From contig CAWFSF010000001.1 of assembly GCA_963818475.1 (NCBI GenBank), positions 192,001-256,000 on the forward strand: a stretch of DNA of 64,000 nucleotides, in the 5' to 3' direction. This DNA comes from Nitrospirota bacterium (lineage in GTDB: Bacteria; Nitrospirota; UBA9217). The notes beneath the pieces were generated by a model. The model saw nothing but the letters and a program-made list of their open reading frames with translations. It was not told the origin of the DNA and did no database searches. Numbering within the stretch: the first letter of the stretch is position 1; each line of letters opens with the position of its first letter. The translations under genes and the position numbers were made by a program. Shown piece after piece: positions 6,576 through 56,084 of the stretch.

Positions 6576-6628
6576 AGGAGTATCCTTTAAACTAAGACGC
6601 AAATCTTCACACAAGGAGAAGAACATTT

Positions 6629-6722
6629 ACCGCAAAGGCGCGAAGAACGCGAAGGATGCCGGAACAAGGGGGATGTCTTAAGATCTACACGATTTCCTTC
6701 GCGACCCTTGCGTCTTCGCGGT
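6629..6722. repeat. Periodic inverted-repeat element (CGCRAAG x3 arms)
   Basis: accgcaaaggcgcgaagaacgcgaagga ... tccttcgcgacccttgcgtcttcgcggt. Confidence 0.8.
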
Positions 6723-6780
6723 TCCAAGATCTCAGTTCTGCCATTTGAATGATCCTGTAACTGCCCAGGTCAACATAGTA

Positions 6781-6864
6781 TCCGCAGATTGCACAGATTT
6801 CACAGATTAAAGCAAACCTGAATTAGGTATTTTAAAATATGCGTCCATCTGCGAAATCTGCGGA
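6781..6864. repeat. Periodic inverted-repeat element (CRCAGAT x3 arms)
   Basis: tccgcagattgcacagatttcacagatt ... aatatgcgtccatctgcgaaatctgcgga. Confidence 0.8.
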
Positions 6865-6935
6865 CAAAAGGGTTTTTCTCTGGTGCCACACCCTTATGGG
6901 TTCAGATGTGCTGAATAGTTGCATAATCCCTGTCT

Positions 6936-8864
6936 TTAAAATGCCTGCACTGCTTCCATCAGCACACCCGCGCTCCCCGGCTCATGCACTGCCGCGGTCC
7001 TTGCTTCCTTCCATCGTCTTCGCAGCTTCTTCACGTCCTCGCCCTTCGCTTCCCGCGCCTTGAGCTTTCTGTCGATCGCCTCCAGCTGCGCCAGCGCCTC
7101 GCGTATGCCCTTATCCAGGTTCCGATACTTGACCGCATCGCTCTTCGGGATCGAGAAATCACCGCTCGTCTTCCAGATGTCGCCCAACTTCATCCATGCG
7201 GCAAAATTCTCGACCTTCCCGCCTTCCATGAGCTCTATTTTCGACAAGGCTTTGATGTCTCTGACGTGAATGCCGTTTTTGTCCGCCACCACCTTCTGGC
7301 TTCCATCGAACGGCTCAGCACCCTGGTTGTCCAAATAATGCCACGTTACGCGGGAGACCTGGATCTCCGAATCATGGCAGCTCCCGCAGGTGCGCGATTT
7401 CCCAAGCGGATGCGCCACTTGCTCCACCTGGAGCCAGGCGAGGTAGTTGTTGTTCCCGCCCGGGAAGTTGAAGGTCCCGAGCTGGGCATAGGCATCGTGG
7501 GTCTCGCCTTTTGGCCAGCGGAAGATGAGGCCCGGCTTCGGCAGGACGGTCTCCTTGATCCCGCCCGCACTGTTCGGCCAGATCTTGGTCGGTATCCAGC
7601 GCTTGTTCTGGTCCTTGATCAGGATCGGCGGCTCCATGGGACCGTAATAGAGTGAGTATTTCTTAAAGGGATTCGGCTTCCCGGCAATGAAGCCTGGTCC
7701 CCACGAGGTCATCTCGTATCCGCCCAGGATCTTCACGTGGCAGGCTTCGCAGGCCAGGTTTTTGTGCATGCTGACCGCCATGGCCTGCTCGACTTCGATA
7801 TGGCAATCCTGGCACGTGGCCTTGCGCTCGATATGGCCCATGCCGTCAGGGCCGGTCTGATGGCAGTCCGTGCACTCGATCTTTTTGCTGACATGCACGT
7901 CCTCGGGCAGGCCTGCAGGCTCGGAGAACTCCTTCCCGAGATAGCTGTCGCCGCGCCTCCGCTCCATCGTGCCTGCATGACAGACAAAAGTGCTCCTGCC
8001 GCCGCCCGTGCAGTTCGCCGAAGGCGGTGTTCTGCTGAATGCGTGGCTGCCCTTCTCCCGGGAAGGCGCATAATGGCAGTCGAGGCAGCCTGCATGGCAG
8101 ATGTTGCAGGCTTTCTGCTTGGCAATGGCCTGCTCACGAGTGAGCGGCTGGTTGATCTGCTCCACGATCTTCTGCGTGTTCTCGAAGGAGAACTTGTTTC
8201 CTTCTGCCCTGCCGACCGGCAAGGTGTCTGCAAAGGATGGCCCTCAATTATTGGGGCCATGGATATCGTTCCAGATCCGCATGGACCGCTGGCGGAAGTT
8301 CGAGCCCATAATGCTGGTGCTGAACTGCTTCACCTGGTCGGGATGGCAGTTGGACTTGCCGCAGGTCTTCTTCGCAATGGCCGGATCATACCCGAGCGTC
8401 AGCCTGTTCCGGTCGTGGTACAGCAGCGTTCCCACGTCGTAATCGAGCGAACCGTCAGCCGACCGCGGCAGCATTTCGCGCAAACGATCGTCGCCGGCGG
8501 GCAGGAGCTGTTTCACGTGGCCTTTTCGCTGCACACTATTAAGATTATTATCGAGGACAATGAGCTTCAGCATGCCCTGATGGGCAGTGGCGGGATCGTT
8601 CGACAGGCCGTTCCCCAGGTGGCAGTCACGGCATTCCGTGTTCGGATGGCGCGCTTCCTTTTGCACCTGCTCGCGGGTCATCACGAACTGCGGATAGCCG
8701 AGGCTGGTCATCTTCGCAGTGTCAGCGTGGCACTTAACGCAGCGGTCGCTGGAATGATAGCCGGAGTAGAGGGTGATAAAAAGAAGAACAAGGACCAACT
8801 GGGCCATAAGGATCGCCATGCCTTGCCTTGTTCCGAACCATTTCCAAAGTTTGCCGATAGCCAT
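6936..8864 (-). CDS. Membrane-anchored multiheme cytochrome c, probable selenoprotein (in-frame TGA at 8244-8246)
   Basis: ORFs 8244-8894 and 6936-8222 are in one frame, joined by HGPNN-TGA-GPSFADTL. 8 CxxCH plus CX4CH and CX9CH motifs; N-terminal TM helix; SECIS-like hairpin. Confidence 0.85.
8199..8237 (-). promoter_or_regulatory. Putative bacterial SECIS element
   Basis: TCCTTTGC-AGACA-CCTTGCC GGTC GGCAGG-GCAGAAGGA; the GGUC loop begins 26 nt after the TGA. Confidence 0.75.
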
Positions 8865-8947
8865 AAGAACCACTTCGTCAATAGGGGGGGCCAAAAAGCA
8901 CGACCGCCCTGAGCATCATCTATATTCGCCGGCATATTCCGGACAGT

Positions 8948-10746: not shown

Positions 10747-10846
10747 ACGCATTCTGGAGTTGATGAAGCGAACAGCAGGAGCGTCTGCCTGAATACGCTC
10801 AGGTCAGATGGCGGTCGCGGCAGGAGCGGCGCAAGGCGACAAAAGC

Positions 10847-10874
10847 TTGACAAATATTGCAACCATGCTATCTT
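10847..10874 (+). promoter_or_regulatory. Sigma70 promoter of the TraF-like gene
   Basis: TTGACA-N16-TATCTT with a TGn extended -10. Confidence 0.55.
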
Positions 10875-10910
10875 TACATGAATCTATCGGCTCTTCAGGA
10901 GGACCTGGTT

Positions 10911-12119
10911 ATGAAAAAGCTCTTGACCTTTCTTGTGTTCATTGCATCGCTCACCGTGTTCACGACACACGCACCGGCAGCTCAGTTCAGCGTTGTCGGA
11001 CCACGGGCCCTCGGCATGGGGGGCGCTTCCGTCGCATCGGTGAACGACTCAACAGCCGTGTACTGGAATCCCGCGGCACTGGCCGACTTCAGGCGCGTCG
11101 ATATCCGCATCCCTGCAAGCGTGGGCACCCGGGACCATGTGGGCCTCGAGGATAAATGGGACAGGATCAACAACATCGACGCGCTCGTCCAAAGCGGCGA
11201 TCCTGCGGCGATCAATGAGACGATCAGCCTCCTGAATGATCTGAACAAGCCGAAATCCGGCGCGGACCTCGACGGATCAGCCGGCCTCCTGGTATCGGTC
11301 CCGATCGGCAATTCAGCCATCGCCCTGAGCGGAATGAGCCGGCTAAACGCAGGGATCTATCCTACCATTGACACCCTGCATACGAGCGCAACCTATACAC
11401 CGCCACAACCGGACTTCGTGGGGAACAACAACAGTGCAGTCTCCGGCATCGGCATGACCGCTGTTGAACCGGCAATCTCATTCGCCACGTCCTTTGGCGA
11501 CAAGCTCTTTGTCGGCGCGAACGCCAAAATGATCTACGCGGATACCTACGTCCACTCCGACGTTCTCACCTCGGACGACTTTGATACGTTTTCCGACAAC
11601 CTGGACAAGAGCAAGACCAGCTCCAGCAAGGCATCGGCCGATATCGGCATCCTGTTCAAGGCCTTTGACAGCCTCAGCATCGGCCTGGTCGGCCGGGACT
11701 TGACCTCGCCGTCCTTCCCGGTCGAAGGGCTGTTTGCACAAAAGCAGGCGGGCGGAGATGTGACACTGGCATCAGACACGCGTGAGATCAAGCTCGACCC
11801 CCAGTACCGGGCCGGCATTGCCTGGAAACCTCTCGAGACATTTACGGTCGCCATGGATTATGACCTGACGAAGAACAAGACGTTCACGCCAGGCTTCGAG
11901 GACCAGACCCTTGCCGTGGGATTGGAAAAGACCCTGTTCTCCGAGTATCTCAACCTCCGCCTCGGCGCATACAAGAACCTGGCAGAGAGCGGGACCAAAG
12001 CAGTATACACGGCAGGCATCGGGTTCAGGCTCTTCGCGCTTCGTCTTGATGTGGCCGGCGCCTATAACTCGGACAAGGATGAGGCCCAGGCTTCCGTGGA
12101 CCTTGCGCTCAGATTCTAA
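10911..12119 (+). CDS. Outer-membrane beta-barrel protein, TraF_2/FadL-like family
   Basis: Signal peptide, GPRALGMGGA...AVYWNPAAL motif, C-terminal Phe; AGGAGG RBS. Confidence 0.75.
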   Translation: MKKLLTFLVFIASLTVFTTHAPAAQFSVVGPRALGMGGASVASVNDSTAVYWNPAALADFRRVDIRIPASVGTRDHVGLEDKWDRINNIDALVQSGDPAAINETISLLNDLNKPKSGADLDGSAGLLVSVPIGNSAIALSGMSRLNAGIYPTIDTLHTSATYTPPQPDFVGNNNSAVSGIGMTAVEPAISFATSFGDKLFVGANAKMIYADTYVHSDVLTSDDFDTFSDNLDKSKTSSSKASADIGILFKAFDSLSIGLVGRDLTSPSFPVEGLFAQKQAGGDVTLASDTREIKLDPQYRAGIAWKPLETFTVAMDYDLTKNKTFTPGFEDQTLAVGLEKTLFSEYLNLRLGAYKNLAESGTKAVYTAGIGFRLFALRLDVAGAYNSDKDEAQASVDLALRF

Positions 12120-12170
12120 CGCAGAGGTGATCAGTGCTTTCCTCTGACCAGAATGATCTTATAACAATAG

Positions 12171-15792: not shown

Positions 15793-16525
15793 CTAAAGGG
15801 CGTCCTTCGCCCGCACCTCGGTACTATACTGTTTGCCGCTCGATAAGATCAGCGTCATCTCGACGATTGGCGGTTTCCCTTTCGTTAGACAACTGTTCTT
15901 GTCGCCCCACTCATCGACCCATGTCAACCCGTCGTAGGAATATCGGAACCGCAGTTCGTCCACCTGGTCCGTGATCTCGTATTCAACTCCGCCTTCAAGC
16001 GGCGGGAGCATCCTTGCTCAGTTCCCGCTTTTCGCGCCGCATCAGGGAATAGCCTTTGCCGCCCGCTTTTTCCGTGAAGTAGTAGTCTGCTTCGAGGAGT
16101 TCCGTTTCTTTCGAATCCGGCCTCGGAAAATTCGTGAGCGTGGTCATGGCAAGGCTGTCATGCCGGCGCTTGACCCCTTCCGTTTCGACCTCTTCCTTCT
16201 TGCCGTAGAACACGGCGCTGGGCTTGTACGAGACATGGTCGCAGTCTGCGTTCTCAATGTCATGCGACAAACGCGCGATCAGTGTCCGTGCCAGGTCGGT
16301 CTCGTCGCGAAGGGCCTCGGCGCGCTCTACGCTCTGGCCTGCGGTAGAAAAGGTTGCATAGATCACCGTCATGACCACAGCAAGGATCGACATGGCCAGG
16401 AGCACTTCGAGCAGGGTAAAACCCTTCGCATTTCGGATTGCGGATTGCGGATTGCAGATCTTATCCCTTTTCACCTGCATTCCGCAATCCGAAATCCGAA
16501 ATCCGAAATTCAGAACCTTATTCAT
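15793..16525 (-). CDS. gspJ: Minor pseudopilin GspJ (apparent frameshift near 16000)
   Basis: KGFTLLEVLLAMSIL prepilin motif; C-terminal fragment LRFRYSYDGLTWVDEW. Confidence 0.85.
16430..16510. repeat. Heptamer palindrome within the gspJ leader
   Basis: (ATTKCGG)x4 ... (TCCGMAA)x4, translated as FGFRISDCG...NPQSAIRN. Confidence 0.85.
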
Positions 16526-16911
16526 AGCTCACCAGTTCCACCATGTCAAAGCGTTCGCCTTCTTTCCAAAGCACGGCAATACGCACTTCCATGACCTGCG
16601 GGATCGGTGTGGGAGCGATCGTCTTCTTCCAGCTATAATCCTTGTACACATCCCCATACACGTCCTCGGGGAACTCGCCTTCGTCCTCGGCAGGAAGCTG
16701 CGGTTTTTTTATGAGCGTCTCGGTCATCAAGCGCTTGGCAAGGAGCGTCGCCGTGGTGATCCGCTCGGCCTTCATGACGTCTTCCATGCTCCTGTTCTTG
16801 AGCCCCAGGAGCGACACGATGACCAGTGCCAGGATGGCCACCGCGATCATGACCTCAAGGAGGGTGAACCCGCTCTGGACCCCGGACCCTCGAACTCTGG
16901 ACCCTGCTCAT
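16518..16911 (-). CDS. gspI: Minor pseudopilin GspI (apparent 1-nt frameshift in the leader)
   Basis: SGFTLLEVMIAVAIL. The ATG at 16911 overlaps the gspH stop and is one base out of frame across a GGGTCC heptamer tract. Confidence 0.8.
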
Positions 16912-17501
16912 CGTTCCTCCACTTCGCCTTCACGCAGTTCCGTGTTTCCGGTGAGCGGCTTCACGATGAGCGTGAACGGTTTGTCATCGCCGTTGCGCAA
17001 ATGGATGAGCGCGGGCTCGACCCAGCCGTCCGGCGTAAAGAGGATATAGGGATCGTCGGGGTGGCTGCCGACCTGCACATCCCGGAACGATATTTGTCCT
17101 GCCAGGCTGCCTTCGCTCGCCAGGGCGGACTTGCAGCCGCTTGAATTCCGCAGTACCTTCCGATGCTCCTTCTGAAAGGACCGTAAACTCCTCGGCCCAG
17201 TACTTGCCGCCCTGGATATCGAACTTGAGCCGGTAGACCGTTTTTTTTGCCTGCGCCTCGTCCCGAAGGAACTTGATCATCCCGGTCAGATGGCGCGAGC
17301 TCCGTTTCAGGTTCGCCTCGCCGATATCGCCGAGCTTCGGGATGACCAGCCCCATCATCACGCCGAGAACAACGATCACGACCATGAGCTCGATGAGGGT
17401 AAAGCCTTTTGATTGCGGATTGCGGATTGCGGATTGCGGATTTCGATTCTTCTAATTTAATCCGACAATCCGAAATCCGAAATCCGAAATTGTTTCAGCA
17501 T
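16908..17501 (-). CDS. gspH: Minor pseudopilin GspH (apparent frameshifts)
   Basis: KGFTLIELMVVIVVLG; C-terminal FTPDGWVE...PLTGNT in a second frame. Confidence 0.75.
17411..17491. repeat. Heptamer palindrome within the gspH leader
   Basis: (GATTGCG)x4 ... (AATCCGA)x4. Confidence 0.85.
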
Positions 17502-17955: not shown

Positions 17956-17980
17956 AATCCGCAATCCGAAATCCGAAATT
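17956..17980. repeat. Heptamer half-site between gspF and gspG
   Basis: aatccgcaatccgaaatccgaaatt. Confidence 0.7.
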
Positions 17981-31584: not shown

Positions 31585-31676
31585 AACCACGAAGGTCACG
31601 AAGACCGCGAAGAAATTCTCGAAAATAAGTATGCTTCACTATTAAGGCTTACTTCGTGCTTCGTGTTCTTCGTGGT
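31585..31676. repeat. Gene-less (CACGAAG)3 inverted-repeat element
   Basis: aaccacgaaggtcacgaagaccgcgaag ... cttcgtgcttcgtgttcttcgtggt. Confidence 0.85.
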
Positions 31677-31708: not shown

Positions 31709-32287
31709 TCAGCAGGCATCATCCTCGACACCGCCTTCTCTGTACTGCTCCACACCGATCCGGTAGAGGTCCGCGCCATGCACGTCATTCACCACGATGG
31801 CCGGGAAATCCACTACCTCGAGCCGCATCACCGCCTCGGTCCCGAGCTCGGGGTAGGCGATCACCTCTGCCTTGCGTATCGCCTTCGAGATAAGCGCGCC
31901 TGCGCCGCCGATTGCCGCAAAATAGACAGCATGGTGTTTTACGATCGCGTCCTTCACTGCCTGTCCGCGCGGCCCCTTGCCGATCATGCCCTTGAGCCCC
32001 AGTTCGAGGAGAACTGGCGTGTACTTGTCCATGCGGTAGCTCGTGGTCGGCCCTGCTGAGCCGATAGGCCTTCCCGGAGGGGCGGGAGAGGGACCGGTAT
32101 AGTACAGGATCTGGCCCCTGGGGTCGAACGGCAGCGGCTGGCCCTTCTGGTGCGCCTCGACCATGTACTTGTGCGCCATGTCACGGCCGGTGTAGATCAC
32201 CCCGCTCATGACCACGCGGTCTCCCGCCTTCAATGTTTCGATAACGTCGTCGGTCAGCGGTGGAAACAGCTTGATTGTTTCAGTCAT
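31709..32287 (-). CDS. Fe-S fumarate hydratase (class I) beta subunit
   Basis: GVIYTGRD, GPTTSYRM, MIGKG, LGTEA. Confidence 0.92.
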   Translation of the reverse strand: MTETIKLFPPLTDDVIETLKAGDRVVMSGVIYTGRDMAHKYMVEAHQKGQPLPFDPRGQILYYTGPSPAPPGRPIGSAGPTTSYRMDKYTPVLLELGLKGMIGKGPRGQAVKDAIVKHHAVYFAAIGGAGALISKAIRKAEVIAYPELGTEAVMRLEVVDFPAIVVNDVHGADLYRIGVEQYREGGVEDDAC

Positions 32288-32321: not shown

Positions 32322-32788
32322 AACCACGAAGAGCACGAAGCTCACGAAGGAGTTCACAGTACAAACCTCTTGATTCCATTCCTCAGGTATTTCTCGTTGA
32401 AATTGATCAAAAGCCCGATGGGAATATTTGCCAGTTTCATATAGGTAAGGACCTGCGCCTCATGAACCGGATTTAACGAATCAACACTTTTCAATTCAAC
32501 GATGAGCTTGTTGTCGACGAGCAAATCGATCGATAACCGCAAGATATGCGCGTATCCTTATAGACAACCGGCAATTCCGCTTCCAAAATAAACGGGATGC
32601 CTGCGCGACTCAATTCATAAGCGAAACAGTGCTTGTATGCATTTTCAAGCAGGCCGGGACCAAGCACCTTGTGTACTTCAAGGGCATGACCGAGAACCTT
32701 ATGAGATAGTGCATCGAATTCCATCAGCACACCCGATTTATTCCTTCGGAATATGATCTACTTCGTGACCTTCGTGTGCTTCGTGGTT
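32322..32788. mobile_element. Putative insertion element: 28-bp periodic inverted repeats enclosing a GxxExxY gene
   Basis: Arms at 32322-32349 and 32761-32788 (25/28 match as an inverted repeat); splits the fumarase alpha and beta genes. Mobility is inferred. Confidence 0.6.
32354..32724 (-). CDS. GxxExxY protein (PD-(D/E)XK-like nuclease; apparent 1-nt frameshift near 32530)
   Basis: VHKVLGPGLLENAY ... GYR/IDLLVDNKLIVELK ... HEAQVLTY ... GLLINF. Confidence 0.92.
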
Positions 32789-32793
32789 CCCGT

Positions 32794-33633
32794 TTATAAT
32801 ATGATCGTTTTGTGCCGCGCCGCATGGCAGTTGATATTCACCGCCACCGGCAGGCTCGCGATATGACAGGGATAGCTTTCCACATGCACGGCCATTGCCG
32901 TCACCTTGCCGCCCAGGCCTTCGGGGCCGATGCCGGTCTTGTTCACGGCCCTGAGCAGCATCTCCTCGAGGGATGCCAGCTCGAGCTTCGCGTTCGGGCT
33001 GCCGATGGTGCGCAGCAGCGATTTCTTCGCAATGAGCGCCGCCTTCTCGAAATCGCCGCCGATGCCGACGCCGATCACCACCGGCGGGCAGGGATTGGCG
33101 CCTGCACGCTGCACGCACTCGAGCACGAAGTTTTTGATCCCTTCGACGCCCTCGGTGGGGCGCAGCATGCGGATGACGCTCATGTTCTCGCTGCCCGCGC
33201 CTTTGGGCATGAACGAGATCTTGAGCTTGTCGCCGGGGACCAGCTCGGTATACACGATCGCCGGCGTATTGTCGCCGGTGTTCCTGCGCGTGAGCGGATC
33301 GACCACGGACTTCCGGAGATACCCTTCTCTGTATCCTTTGCGCACGCCGTCATTGATGGCGTCGACAATGAACCCGTTCTTGATCCGCAGGTCCTGGCCG
33401 ATCTCGACAAAGAAGATGGCGATGCCCGTGTCCTGGCAGATCGGGATGTGCTCATCCTTCGCGATGCGCGCGTTTTCCTTCAGCAGCCCGATGATCTCCC
33501 TGGCTGCGGGAGACGTCTCGGTCTCGATGGCGCGGTCGAACGCCGTGAGCACATCGTCGCTCAGGTGGTATGCCGCTTCGATACAGATCTGGGCGACCTG
33601 GTCCCGGATCTCCTCTACGTGAATTTCTCGCAT
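32794..33633 (-). CDS. Fe-S fumarate hydratase (class I) alpha subunit
   Basis: [38 protein letters not shown]. Confidence 0.93.
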
Positions 33634-34596: not shown

Positions 34597-34693
34597 TACC
34601 ACGAAGGACACGAAGAGCACGAAGATTTTTATTATTTTTAAATAAAAATGAGTGTTAGCATTAAGCTTCGTGAACTTCGTGCTCTTCGTGGTA
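34597..34693. repeat. Gene-less (CACGAAGNN)3 inverted-repeat element with a 41-nt AT-rich loop
   Basis: taccacgaaggacacgaagagcacgaag ... cttcgtgaacttcgtgctcttcgtggta. Confidence 0.9.
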
Positions 34694-34715: not shown

Positions 34716-35993
34716 TTACAGCTTTGTTATTTTCACCTTGCTGATCTTCCTGCCCTCAAGCTCCAGCACCTCCAGCTTGAGGTTCTTATACTTGAGCAGC
34801 TCCCCCACTTTCGGCATTCTGCCGAACAGTCCGAACACGAACCCGCCGAGGGTATTGAAATCAGGGGACTGGAGCGACGTGTCGAGCATTTCGTTCACTT
34901 CATCGAGGGCCGACTGGCCCGACACGACAAAGTTCTTTTCGTCCACGATCTCGACTTCTTTTTCGGCCGATTCCAGCTCATCGTGGATGCTGCCCACGAT
35001 CTCTTCGATCAGGTCCTCAAGCGTCACCAGACCGGCCGTACCGCCGTATTCATCGATCACGATGGCCAGCTGGAACCGCTCGCGCTGCATCTCCGACAGC
35101 AGTTCGCTCACCCGCTTGTTCTCGGGGATGAAGTAGGCGGGCCGGATGAAGTTCTTGATGGTCTCGCTGCGATCGACATCGCCCGCGGCCATGGCGACCA
35201 GGATGTCCTTGATGTAGAGGATGCCGACCACGGTGTCCACCGTGTCCTCGATCACGGGATAGCGGGAATAGCCGTACTCCGAGACAAGGCTGAACACGTC
35301 CTCGAGCACGGCATCGGTCGGCACGCTCACGATCTCGGTCCGGGGACGCATGGCCTCCGCCGCGAGGGTGTCGCCGAACTCGAAGACCTTGTGGAGGAGT
35401 TCCTTTTCTTCTTCGTTCAGCGTCCCGCCCTCTTCGCCGAGGTTGATCATGGCCTTGATGTCTTCTTCGGTGACCACCGCGGTGCAGGTCAGGCCCTGTG
35501 GTCCCGGGCCGGCAAAGGTGTCCGCAGCACCCGCCAGCAGACGCGCCGCAGGAGAGAGCAGCGCCATGACGGTCCCCATGGGACCGGCCACGGCCAGCGC
35601 GACACGGTCGGGATTCCGCGCTGACAAGCCCTTGGGCGCCAGTTTGGCGAAGACCACGACCACGAAGGTCATGGCCACTGCAGTGACCGCCACTGCCGCT
35701 GAAGTATTTTCGAACAGGTGCATGGCAAGCGCGGCGAAGATCGCAACAGCGACGGTGATCGACAGGTTCTCGGCCAGCAGCAGCGTGGCATGCAGACGGT
35801 CACGCTGCTCAAGCAGTTTCAGGACGGCCGCCGCCCGGACATCGCCCGCATCGGCAAGATCGCGCAGATGCGTTTTGTTGGCGAACACGATAGCCGTCTC
35901 CGATACTGCAAAGAACGCGGCGATCAGGATTGCCAGGCATGCCAGCACCAGGTAGATGCCATAGGTCGATAGGAATGTCGTCAGGGTTTCCAT
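34716..35993 (-). CDS. CNNM/DUF21-CBS-CorC (hemolysin-family) transporter
   Basis: AFFAVSETA, CBS pair with YSRYPV and DEYGGTAGLVTLEDLIEEIVG, CorC domain. Confidence 0.92.
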   Translation of the reverse strand: METLTTFLSTYGIYLVLACLAILIAAFFAVSETAIVFANKTHLRDLADAGDVRAAAVLKLLEQRDRLHATLLLAENLSITVAVAIFAALAMHLFENTSAAVAVTAVAMTFVVVVFAKLAPKGLSARNPDRVALAVAGPMGTVMALLSPAARLLAGAADTFAGPGPQGLTCTAVVTEEDIKAMINLGEEGGTLNEEEKELLHKVFEFGDTLAAEAMRPRTEIVSVPTDAVLEDVFSLVSEYGYSRYPVIEDTVDTVVGILYIKDILVAMAAGDVDRSETIKNFIRPAYFIPENKRVSELLSEMQRERFQLAIVIDEYGGTAGLVTLEDLIEEIVGSIHDELESAEKEVEIVDEKNFVVSGQSALDEVNEMLDTSLQSPDFNTLGGFVFGLFGRMPKVGELLKYKNLKLEVLELEGRKISKVKITKL

Positions 35994-48114: not shown

Positions 48115-48218
48115 GCCACGAAGTCACGAAGGCACTAAGAAATCGAAATCATGGAGCAGATTTTTCTTTTTATCTAGGCGGTCATTTATTCTACTTCGTA
48201 TCTTCGTGCCTTCGTGGC
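48115..48218. repeat. Gene-less CACGAAG inverted-repeat element (8-nt period)
   Basis: gccacgaagtcacgaaggcactaag ... cttcgtatcttcgtgccttcgtggc. Confidence 0.85.
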
Positions 48219-51445: not shown

Positions 51446-51475
51446 GACAATCCTTATAATTCATGAAATCGTTCC

Positions 51476-51621
51476 GCCACGGAGTCACGGAGACACGGAG
51501 TGAATAAAATCTTTTGCATATTACATCACAAAAAGATACCATCCACCCCAAAGACGCTGAGACACAGAGAAAAGCAATCCGAAAGAATGTGGTTCTCTCC
51601 GGCCTCCGTGTCTCCGTGGTT
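51476..51621. repeat. Periodic inverted-repeat element (CACGGAG type) between the ABC subunits
   Basis: gccacggagtcacggagacacggag ... ctccggcctccgtgtctccgtggt; heptamer half-site at 51649-51668. Confidence 0.8.
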
Positions 51622-51669
51622 AAACCGTGCTTGCAGTTCGTCTTTTTGAATCCGAAATCCGCAATCGAT

Positions 51670-55391: not shown

Positions 55392-55414
55392 GGGTATCCT
55401 TCCGGATTACTCGC

Positions 55415-55443
55415 CGTCATTACGAACGAAGCGAAGCAATCTC
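55415..55443. repeat. Short GTCATTRCGA..CGAAGCAATCT repeat remnant
   Basis: cgtcattacgaacgaagcgaagcaatctc resembles, from memory, a widespread palindromic intergenic repeat; single copy here. Confidence 0.45.
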
Positions 55444-55483
55444 GTGTTCCTCTTTGAAGGCCGTAAATATTTATTTTGTTGTC

Positions 55484-56065
55484 TCAGACGATTGTGCTCA
55501 TCACAAGCGACTCAAGGAAATACTCCCCGAGGTTCATAACACCGACCAGGACCGCTGCCGCGAGAAACGATGCAACAGCATATCCTGCTGATTGTTTTTT
55601 CGACGTTCCCGCTACACCTGCGATGCCAAGATACAGAAGATAGATGCTGTACAGCATCGCCGCATAGATCGCCCAGCCCATCTTCGGAATGACCGAGATG
55701 AACCCGGCAATAAAAAGCGGCGTGAACGAGTATGCCGCGACTTTGAATCCCTGGAGGCCGGCCCATCGAGCATCAGGAGCCGTGACGATCGCGGTAATGA
55801 CCGCACCGACGACCATGACGTTCAAGACATACATGCAGTACCAAAGCAGATTGGTTATCAGGAGATGGGCAAGAGCGTTGTCGGGAAGGTTCTTACTAAA
55901 GACAAAGCTGCCGGCGATCACTGCCAGCGGCGGGATTGCGGCAAGGGGGGCGACATATTTCAGGAGAAGATCCGCATAGGCGACCGGCTCATCTCTGATC
56001 ATCTGCCACTCATCCCGGGGATGGACAAGGATTTGCAGCATGCGGTTCAGGATCGTTCTCATCAC
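55484..56065 (-). CDS. Yip1-family membrane protein
   Basis: ILVHPRDEW, AAYSFTP, YSIYLLYLG. Confidence 0.85.
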   Translation of the reverse strand: MMRTILNRMLQILVHPRDEWQMIRDEPVAYADLLLKYVAPLAAIPPLAVIAGSFVFSKNLPDNALAHLLITNLLWYCMYVLNVMVVGAVITAIVTAPDARWAGLQGFKVAAYSFTPLFIAGFISVIPKMGWAIYAAMLYSIYLLYLGIAGVAGTSKKQSAGYAVASFLAAAVLVGVMNLGEYFLESLVMSTIV

Positions 56066-56084
56066 GATAGTACCCCGCTCCGCA

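Follow-up and report, generated by a model that had tools for sequence, protein, structure and literature searches.

Introduction

How a small nuclease gene comes to be wedged, within an inverted repeat, between the genes for two subunits of one enzyme is the question raised by a 467-bp unit in the genome of a Nitrospirota bacterium (assembly GCA_963818475.1). The unit is located in a stretch of 64,000 nucleotides of contig CAWFSF010000001.1 (positions 192,001 to 256,000), referred to below as the window, and consists of a GxxExxY gene (Pfam family PF13366, PDDEXK_3) inside inverted (CACGAAGNN)3 arms, between fumA and fumB of the fumarate hydratase. The original prediction, made from the letters of the window, had regarded it as a candidate new mobile-element system in which the protein recognises the periodic arms and mobilises or maintains the elements. 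The explanation favoured in this study, towards which our confidence is evenly balanced, is a hairpin cassette that moves horizontally, lacks a promoter and encodes a protein able to read the cassette's own word arrays, with the build of an intervening sequence (IVS) of 23S rRNA and a way of working similar to that of REPIN/RAYT systems. Such a cassette looks like a kind of selfish DNA.

The cassette and its gene

All six heptamers of the two arms are exact CACGAAG words, and 3 of the 4 spacer positions between them differ from one arm to the other, in keeping with the description of arms that differ in their 2-nt spacers only. The sequence CACGAAGNNCACGAAG, with at most one mismatch allowed, occurs 11 times in the window compared with 0.02 expected, and none of 100 shuffles reached 11. 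With a GC content of 0.454 the unit is also AT-richer than its flanking genes (0.613 for fumA and 0.617 for fumB), as had been stated. The near-identical arms with a short loop that had been noted on both sides of the same operon were found again as hairpins of the same word, and the variant noted further away proved to be a CACGAAG hairpin with a period of 8 (Table 1).

The gene is matched in two halves by the PF13366 profile, 32491-32730 covering profile positions 2-62 and 32354-32542 covering positions 61-117. Both halves score above the curated cut-offs, with 57 and 74 bits for Pfam (cut-off 22) and 59 and 74.5 bits for TIGR04256 of NCBIfam (cut-off 35), and the GxxExxY motif of the window copy reads GLLENAY. 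The frame of this copy breaks just before the D motif. The frameshift near 32530, which the original prediction had listed for confirmation in reads, was not upheld as a property of the locus: the sequencing runs that cover it, three of four (X1, X2 and X3, from three studies), each have one contig with an extra base behind 32530, which by our own reading of the sequence restores the reading frame and with it that of the D...ExK triad. As all three of these contigs carry the additional base, the break is private to this assembly, and the ortholog in a genome of the same genus (G005) is an intact open reading frame (ORF) of 124 codons. The frameshift does not belong to the element as such; either a recent mutation or an error in a run of two bases could account for it.

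Recurrence of the arms and selection on the words

The genome (4.66 Mb in seven contigs) contains about 11 GxxExxY loci. An inverted-repeat score of at least 13 was obtained at 8 of the 11, compared with none of 300 random pseudo-genes. When relatives were surveyed together with this genome, arms were found at 30 of 35 GxxExxY loci. With the G005 protein as the single query and one genome scanned per species, 552 relatives were confirmed, of which the best 80 (58-68% identity) were kept; inverted arms are present at 54 of the 72 loci with enough flank among these 80, distributed over 13 named phyla, against 1 of 263 shifted control windows, and CACGAAG at period 9 is the word of nearly all of them. 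Given the single query, the CACGAAG clade is over-represented in this cross-phylum sample. In all three surveys, then, most GxxExxY genes do carry periodic inverted repeats on their flanks as had been anticipated. Since the shuffle, pseudo-gene and shifted-window controls were negative, a chance or artefactual origin of the arms was rejected.

Word statistics were taken from the 44 loci in which both arms are within four mismatches of three CACGAAG words. Exact CACGAAG accounts for 224 of the 264 words (85%), and a 9/9 period was kept in 74 of the 88 arms. Within the ORFs of the same loci, identity amounts to 77.5% at first and second codon positions and 38.6% at third positions, and 78 of 154 spacer positions (51%) are complementary between the arms. 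Because exactness at 85% stands against 38.6% at third positions, and the spacers are complementary at 51%, these alignments show that selection acts on the sequence of the words and not simply on their pairing, and more strongly than on the protein.

The start codon was found no more than 1 nt from an arm in 26 of the 44 cassettes, and in most of the 14 cross-phylum loci inspected no more than about 10 nt separate the stop codon from the right arm. With its ends so close to the arms, the gene has no space for its own promoter. Among the 18 cassettes whose neighbours are co-directional, 16 share the orientation of the neighbours, as judged from crude ORF calls.

Co-variation of words and proteins

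The tips of a maximum-likelihood tree of 45 GxxExxY proteins were labelled by arm word (11 labels). The labels need 14 changes on this tree, where the minimum is 10 and the mean of shuffled labels is 30.4, and none of 200 shuffles was as low; the co-variation of protein and repeat that had been proposed is thus seen as a clustering of word types on the protein tree. Types with a 10-nt period form a deep clade apart from the 8-9-nt types (support 100/100), and CGCAAAG forms one clade. The word has switched by one base within the period-9 CACGAAG clade, to CACAGAG in three rows and to CATGAAG in one clade of three, and the switched word is present in both arms of the cassette. The same clade brings together G005 with a metagenome-assembled genome (MAG) of Schekmanbacteria, and a Nitrospirales MAG with a gammaproteobacterium, a mixing of phyla which indicates horizontal transfer.

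Gene-less hairpins

Each of the GxxExxY copies in this genome has its own word (CACGGAG at period 8, CGCAAAGG, CACGAAG at period 8, CGCAGAGG, a 10-nt type, and others), and at least eight word types co-exist in the genome. The original prediction of an autonomous/non-autonomous layout holds to the extent that, in addition to each main gene-bearing cassette, the genome contains gene-less hairpins with its word: one gene and 10 hairpins for CACGAAG at period 9, one and 10 for CACGAAG at period 8, one and 14 for CACGGAG at period 8, one and 6-10 for CGCAAAG, and one and 21 for CGGATT at period 7, the last with a PF05635 gene as cargo. For two further words, TGCAAA (four hairpins) and CAGATT (two hairpins), no gene was found in the genome. 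Some hairpins are nested in the loops of others.

Two period-9 CACGAAG hairpins are located less than 2 kb from the cassette gene. About ten hairpins of this type form the core of a dispersed composite repeat of about 190 nt, flanked by the conserved modules TAGTAACTAAAGAATAAAATTCTTCTCAAAATGGCAAG... and ...GGCTCCGGCTTGTCCGGGTTAGG, and the high similarity of its copies suggests recent spread. By eye, the loops of the hairpins showed no similarity to sub-terminal stretches of the cassette, such as might point to an origin of the hairpins as deletion derivatives. As a side observation, the module ...GGCTCCGGCTTGTCCGGGTTAGG also adjoins hairpins of other words in the relative G003. Many metagenome contigs (runs X2, X3 and X5) lead from a CACGAAG left arm to a right arm through 11-30 unrelated letters, which shows that CACGAAG hairpins with different loops are common in the communities sampled.

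Turnover at orthologous sites

fumA and fumB were located in 17 relatives of the same family and the spacers between them compared. An orthologous cassette is present in one of the 17 (G005). The spacer measures 15 or 23 nt in two others (G022 and G021) and 60-332 nt in the remaining 14, where unrelated periodic repeats or hairpins were recognised by eye; the types are CGGATT, TTCGAAG, CTTTGCG, GAGCAGA/CTATGC, CGCAGAG and GCGTGAG, with short CACGAAG hairpins in two. The spacers of 15 and 23 nt confirm that fumA and fumB are normally adjacent, as the original prediction had it. It had proposed a search for empty sites in relatives, but exact junctions are undefinable because whole spacers have been replaced. 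These observations support the view that the unit is a discrete insertion, foreign in composition, which separates two genes that adjoin each other in some relatives. In one metagenome contig (run X5), position 32230 is joined to 32801 through 142 unrelated letters.

When the whole window was compared with G003, whose genes are about 90% identical, many gaps with hairpins in one or both species were found, and the occupants of orthologous gaps differ between the two genomes. The hairpin upstream of mdh in G005 likewise differs from the one in this genome. As occupants at orthologous sites differ in this way, the intergenic spacers turn over much faster than the genes. The cassette gene itself was compared between this genome (G000) and G005, with a ratio of nonsynonymous to synonymous substitution (dN/dS) of 0.065 at a dS of 0.51; by our own comparison, none of the 42 word bases of the arms and 3 of the 8 spacer bases differ. 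Outside the arms no direct repeat was seen, and complementarity often extends a few variable bases past ACC/GGT.

A separate observation concerns the fumA-fumB spacer of locus L039 (G009), which contains about 17 tandem copies of GAGCAGA followed by a word array of the CTATGC type; expansion of an array in place, by slippage, is therefore evidently possible.

A second cargo in the same packaging

When the whole genome was scanned for periodic inverted arrays, a four-helix-bundle gene came to light whose family (PF05635) is that of the intervening-sequence protein of 23S rRNA, with CGGATT(T/G) arrays on either side. Arms are present at four of the five genes of this family that exceed the cut-off in this genome. 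In relatives and this genome together, arms were found at 20 of 29 testable PF05635 loci and have a period of 7 in 17 of the 20, whereas the arms of the 30 armed GxxExxY loci have periods of 8, 9 or 10 in 29 cases and of 7 in none. The packaging is thus common to two unrelated proteins, and the style of the arms follows the cargo. Since PF05635 genes are packaged without a nuclease, this architecture cannot in general be driven by the nuclease.

The protein and the transcript

Residues E28, D68, E78 and K80 are invariant in 48 sequences, and G25 and Y31 are invariant or nearly so. The AlphaFold model is confident (predicted local distance difference test, pLDDT, 95.9) and has the PD-(D/E)XK, or restriction-endonuclease-like, fold. 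Its best Foldseek match was lambda exonuclease (7e-4) and its best alignment with VIA-align was the nuclease domain of BpuSI (Z 7.9), with Hjc at about 5-6; a sequence search of solved structures gave no match at E<=1. To judge from the model, the fold matches are generic for PD-(D/E)XK, no solved structure standing out and no subclass being assigned. Given the invariant E28, D68, E78 and K80, metal-dependent nuclease activity of the GxxExxY protein is likely. The family was listed with function 'Unknown' in a survey of PD-(D/E)XK proteins (PMC3424549).

A long RNA stem had also been suggested, and the minimum-free-energy fold predicted for the cassette transcript does keep the helix between the two arms (z -2.78), none of 100 shuffles folding as well. 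In Rfam, miRNA and snoRNA hairpins gave chance matches below threshold, and no family matched. The genome's 23S rRNA runs without interruption, with one match of 3002 nt over all 2925 model positions.

Features of the window

The genes around the unit are read from the minus strand in the order gene 34716-35993, mdh, fumA, unit, fumB and phosphoribosyltransferase gene; mdh and fumA overlap, and there is accordingly no spacer at their junction. Coordinates are given in Table 1.

Table 1. Positions of the cassette, its host genes and related hairpins in the window, and of dispersed repeat copies elsewhere in the genome
Feature	Position	Strand	Remarks
5' arm (operon mRNA sense)	32761-32788	-	minus-strand reading AACC + CACGAAG-CA-CACGAAG-GT-CACGAAG
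3' arm (mRNA sense)	32322-32349	-	plus-strand reading AACC + CACGAAG-AG-CACGAAG-CT-CACGAAG
GxxExxY/PDDEXK_3 gene	32354-32730	-	two frames in this assembly; likely ATG at 32724
GxxExxY gene, N-part	ends ~32531	-	
GxxExxY gene, C-part	~32530 to stop at 32354	-	
1-nt shortfall	32529-32531		inside YRIDLL (catalytic Asp) motif
fumA, fumarate hydratase alpha subunit (PF05681)	32794-33633	-	upstream host gene; Pfam
fumB, fumarate hydratase beta subunit (PF05683)	31709-32287	-	downstream host gene; Pfam; start 32287 from alignment with relatives
Gene-less hairpin, CACGAAG period 9	31585-31676		loop ~40 nt; between fumB and phosphoribosyltransferase gene
Gene-less hairpin, CACGAAG period 9	34597-34693		loop ~40 nt; between gene 34716-35993 (-) and mdh
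Hairpin, CACGAAG heptamer at period 8	48115-48218		word and period match GxxExxY cassette C6:314275-314753
Composite repeat copies, ~190 nt	C2:726337, C2:780477, C6:106004, C6:168459, C3:188647, C6:2183116, others		

Several other spacers of the window are occupied by repeats. Period-7 hairpins of CGGATT(T/G) were found at 16434-16509, 17411-17490 and 17956-17975, around a pseudopilin-like gene, and the same CGGATT word brackets a PF05635 four-helix-bundle gene at C6:1993523-1994046. The spacer at 16872-16907 is a 36-nt repeat of the TGGACCC type here and a CGGATT hairpin in G003. A CACGGAG period-8 hairpin with a long loop is located at 51446-51648, where the orthologous G003 spacer is only 46 nt long and has other repeats; CACGGAG also brackets the GxxExxY gene at C2:99403-99916. 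The spacer at 6591-6949 is filled by two adjoining hairpins, one of the ACCGCAAAGG/CGCGAAG type and one of the CAGATT period-9 type, and G003 has unrelated repeats there. At 8945, 2 nt in this genome correspond to 2.3 kb in G003 (C3 ~347040-349350), and the 1411 nt of 10759-12169 correspond to 429 nt in G003, a stretch with a CACGGAT-word hairpin. A 679-nt stretch at 55402-56080 was tried as a cassette-type element and rejected, as it holds an ordinary ORF of 193 amino acids (55484-56065, minus strand); it corresponds to 11 nt in G003 and looks like ordinary gene gain or loss.

Weighing the explanations

The favoured explanation builds on what was directly established, namely the architecture, its recurrence across phyla, the selection on the words, their clustering on the protein tree and the presence or absence of the unit at the site; the chemistry by which the protein would bind, cut and mobilise is what we infer in addition. 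The cassette would have entered the fumA-fumB spacer before the split of this species and its congener G005, and would have been kept there under purifying selection. It is most likely co-transcribed with the mdh-fumA-fumB operon, by read-through from the host. The encoded protein may recognise its own word arrays sequence-specifically, probably with one subunit per word, and the gene-less hairpins of the same word would then be non-autonomous partners, spread or maintained by the cassette protein according to RAYT/REPIN logic. In the transcript, the arms are predicted to pair into a long-range stem that would bury the region of the translation start, and this stem would be a likely substrate of RNase III, as in the ORF-bearing intervening sequences of 23S rRNA.

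A number of results weigh against this explanation. The association of hairpin number with the cognate gene is partial across 41 genomes. G013 and G009 have 25 and 19 period-9 CACGAAG word pairs, but no homolog exceeding 44% identity to the query was found in them, and G006 and G002 carry the cognate clade yet have 4 and 2 word pairs, all four of these genomes being incomplete MAGs. The single gene copy per word family fits poorly with an efficient self-copying element. PF05635 cassettes have hairpins of their own without any nuclease, which means that the spread of hairpins does not in general need a nuclease encoded in the cassette. Neither a precise empty site nor a target-site duplication nor an excision product was found; in the synteny with G003 and G005 and in the spacers of the 17 relatives, orthologous spacers are replaced wholesale rather than interrupted. 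Among public sequencing runs, no RNA run was listed with the locus, and the best DNA run contains 0.22 of the sequence words. A PD-(D/E)XK nuclease alone is, moreover, not known to have any strand-transfer chemistry. The clustering of words with proteins could also be pure co-descent of a 450-bp unit; as far as the sequences allow a judgement, co-descent would explain part of the clustering, but not the conservation of the words nor the presence of a switched word in both arms. Taken together, our analysis points to movement of the hairpins by the nuclease itself as the weakest step, because of the PF05635 cassettes without nuclease, the partial hairpin-gene association and the absence of junction evidence.

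In a rival model the arrays are a general vehicle, moved or generated by a host function or an unlinked enzyme, and the proteins are passengers with an unrelated role, for example a defence or addiction nuclease. Two unrelated small proteins in the same packaging speak for it, as do the TGCAAA (4) and CAGATT (2) hairpins with no gene found, the richness of G013 and G009 in CACGAAG hairpins with no close cognate gene found, and the nesting of hairpins in the loops of others. A single external reader, however, cannot account for at least eight word types in one genome, nor for arms whose period follows the cargo family (period 7 at 0 of 30 loci against 17 of 20), word labels that follow the protein tree, or words conserved above coding positions across 13 phyla. 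The passenger model is considered unlikely.

The predicted stem could also be read as the essence of an RNA-level element of the IVS type, in which RNase III cuts the stem. The cut would separate the messages of fumA and fumB, make the upstream mRNA more stable and control translation of the ORF; the protein might bind the RNA stem, and DNA mobility would be secondary or ancient. Size and layout equal those of the Coxiella IVS as given in PMC4990558, the stem is stable as predicted, start codons stand at the arm in 26 of 44 cassettes, the orientation bias is 16 to 2, and hairpins are located at the three spacers of the co-directional run. Under pairing alone, compensatory changes would nevertheless be expected to have altered the words, which are 85% exact with spacers 51% complementary; the conserved D-ExK metal site suggests a DNase, and the 23S rRNA of this genome has no interruption. 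Such an element is considered slightly less likely than the passenger model. Less probable still is that the arrays are operator-like host sites of a global regulator, with the GxxExxY protein as the regulator or irrelevant and no mobility at all. It draws on Geobacter metallireducens, where TCTCCGTS[Y], equivalent to the CACGGAG word read from the other strand, figures among 'predicted global regulator binding sites' (PMC2700814). Occupants of orthologous spacers differ within one genus, though, the composition is foreign and the phylogeny crosses phyla, and a position between co-translated subunit genes and in many unrelated operons is a poor fit to a regulon.

The hairpin cassette whose protein reads its own words may be extended to a more general, and more doubtful, proposition, which we put forward tentatively and would sooner expect to fail than to hold. 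Minimal GxxExxY nucleases and four-helix-bundle IVS proteins would both be sequence-specific readers of hairpins made of periodic 7-10-nt words, which occupy the intergenic spacers of many uncultivated bacterial lineages, each protein clade owning a word, and together they would form a cross-phylum class of replicators of which the rRNA intervening sequences are a special case. The turnover of hairpins, faster than that of coding sequence, would possibly come about through cutting of short-loop hairpins by the nuclease, with repair copying or replacing them.

GxxExxY (PF13366) is a large family, and with a specific word tied to each protein clade, recognition between protein and DNA (or RNA) becomes open to direct testing. 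The cassette also offers a candidate mechanism for widespread intergenic periodic repeats that were noted previously without explanation (e.g. in PMC2700814), and links the 23S rRNA intervening sequences to a broader class of elements. Rapid repeat turnover in the spacers of these lineages, even between co-translated subunit genes, matters for operon expression, annotation and MAG assembly. Should the nucleases prove programmable through a code of 7-nt words, they could be of practical interest. In the literature searched, with subscription journals and supplementary files outside the search, no description linking GxxExxY genes to flanking periodic repeats was found.

Comparison with known systems

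The closest likeness in build is with the intervening sequences of 23S rRNA, which are likewise about 430-470 nt long, with terminal inverted repeats that form a stem of some 28 bp and a loop taken up by a single small ORF. They too are richer in AT than the host, patchily distributed and regarded as horizontally acquired. The helix-45 IVS of Coxiella burnetii, for instance, is described as 428-444 nt long with a 28-bp terminal stem, an S23p ORF and an RNase III cut within the stem (PMC4990558). The S23p family (PF05635) is itself packaged in the same manner between ordinary genes in this genome and its relatives. The cassette differs in being located in an mRNA operon (fumA-fumB) and not in rRNA helix 25 or 45, in carrying a PD-(D/E)XK nuclease, in having arms built from three copies of one word at period 9, and in the gene-less hairpins alongside.

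In its way of working the cassette resembles REPIN/RAYT systems, in which a single-copy gene flanked by its own repeat co-exists with dispersed gene-less inverted doublets that form extragenic hairpins (PMC3116915). Several gene/repeat pairs occur in one genome in both cases, here as four GxxExxY words with one gene and 6-14 hairpins each. The enzyme is different, a PD-(D/E)XK fold by Pfam and fold comparison as opposed to the HUH Y1 (IS200/IS605-like) tyrosine transposase; the cassette gene is inside the hairpin, and its arms are periodic word arrays and not REP palindromes. The cassette phylogeny crosses phyla, whereas RAYTs are described, in PMC3337134 and related papers, as mostly vertically inherited. 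The RAYT/REP-like logic with another enzyme that had been suggested was therefore recovered in the layout of gene and hairpins and in the PD-(D/E)XK enzyme in place of HUH, but not fully in the association of hairpins with genes across genomes, which is partial.

Paired, opposed arrays of 3-5 tandem repeats of 7-9 nt at variable distance have been reported in Geobacter metallireducens, and the class 2 repeat TCTCCGTS[Y] corresponds to the CACGGAG-family word of this genome; in the accessible part of that report they are described as of unknown or regulatory role, with no link to GxxExxY or four-helix-bundle genes (PMC2700814). Homing endonuclease genes, miniature inverted-repeat transposable elements and insertion sequences share the small nuclease gene wedged between conserved genes or the gene-less derivatives with inverted termini. 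The cassette is unlike these in that no target-site duplication was seen, it has no DDE or HUH transposase and there is no evidence of cleavage of an empty allele, and arms are not needed in homing. In an integron gene cassette, a promoter-less ORF is followed on its 3' side by one attC hairpin, at which IntI recombines, in contrast to the arms on both sides of the ORF here. As it is not in rRNA and its enzyme is not an HUH transposase, the cassette is a member of neither the intervening sequences nor the REPIN/RAYT systems, the two with which it shares its build and its layout.

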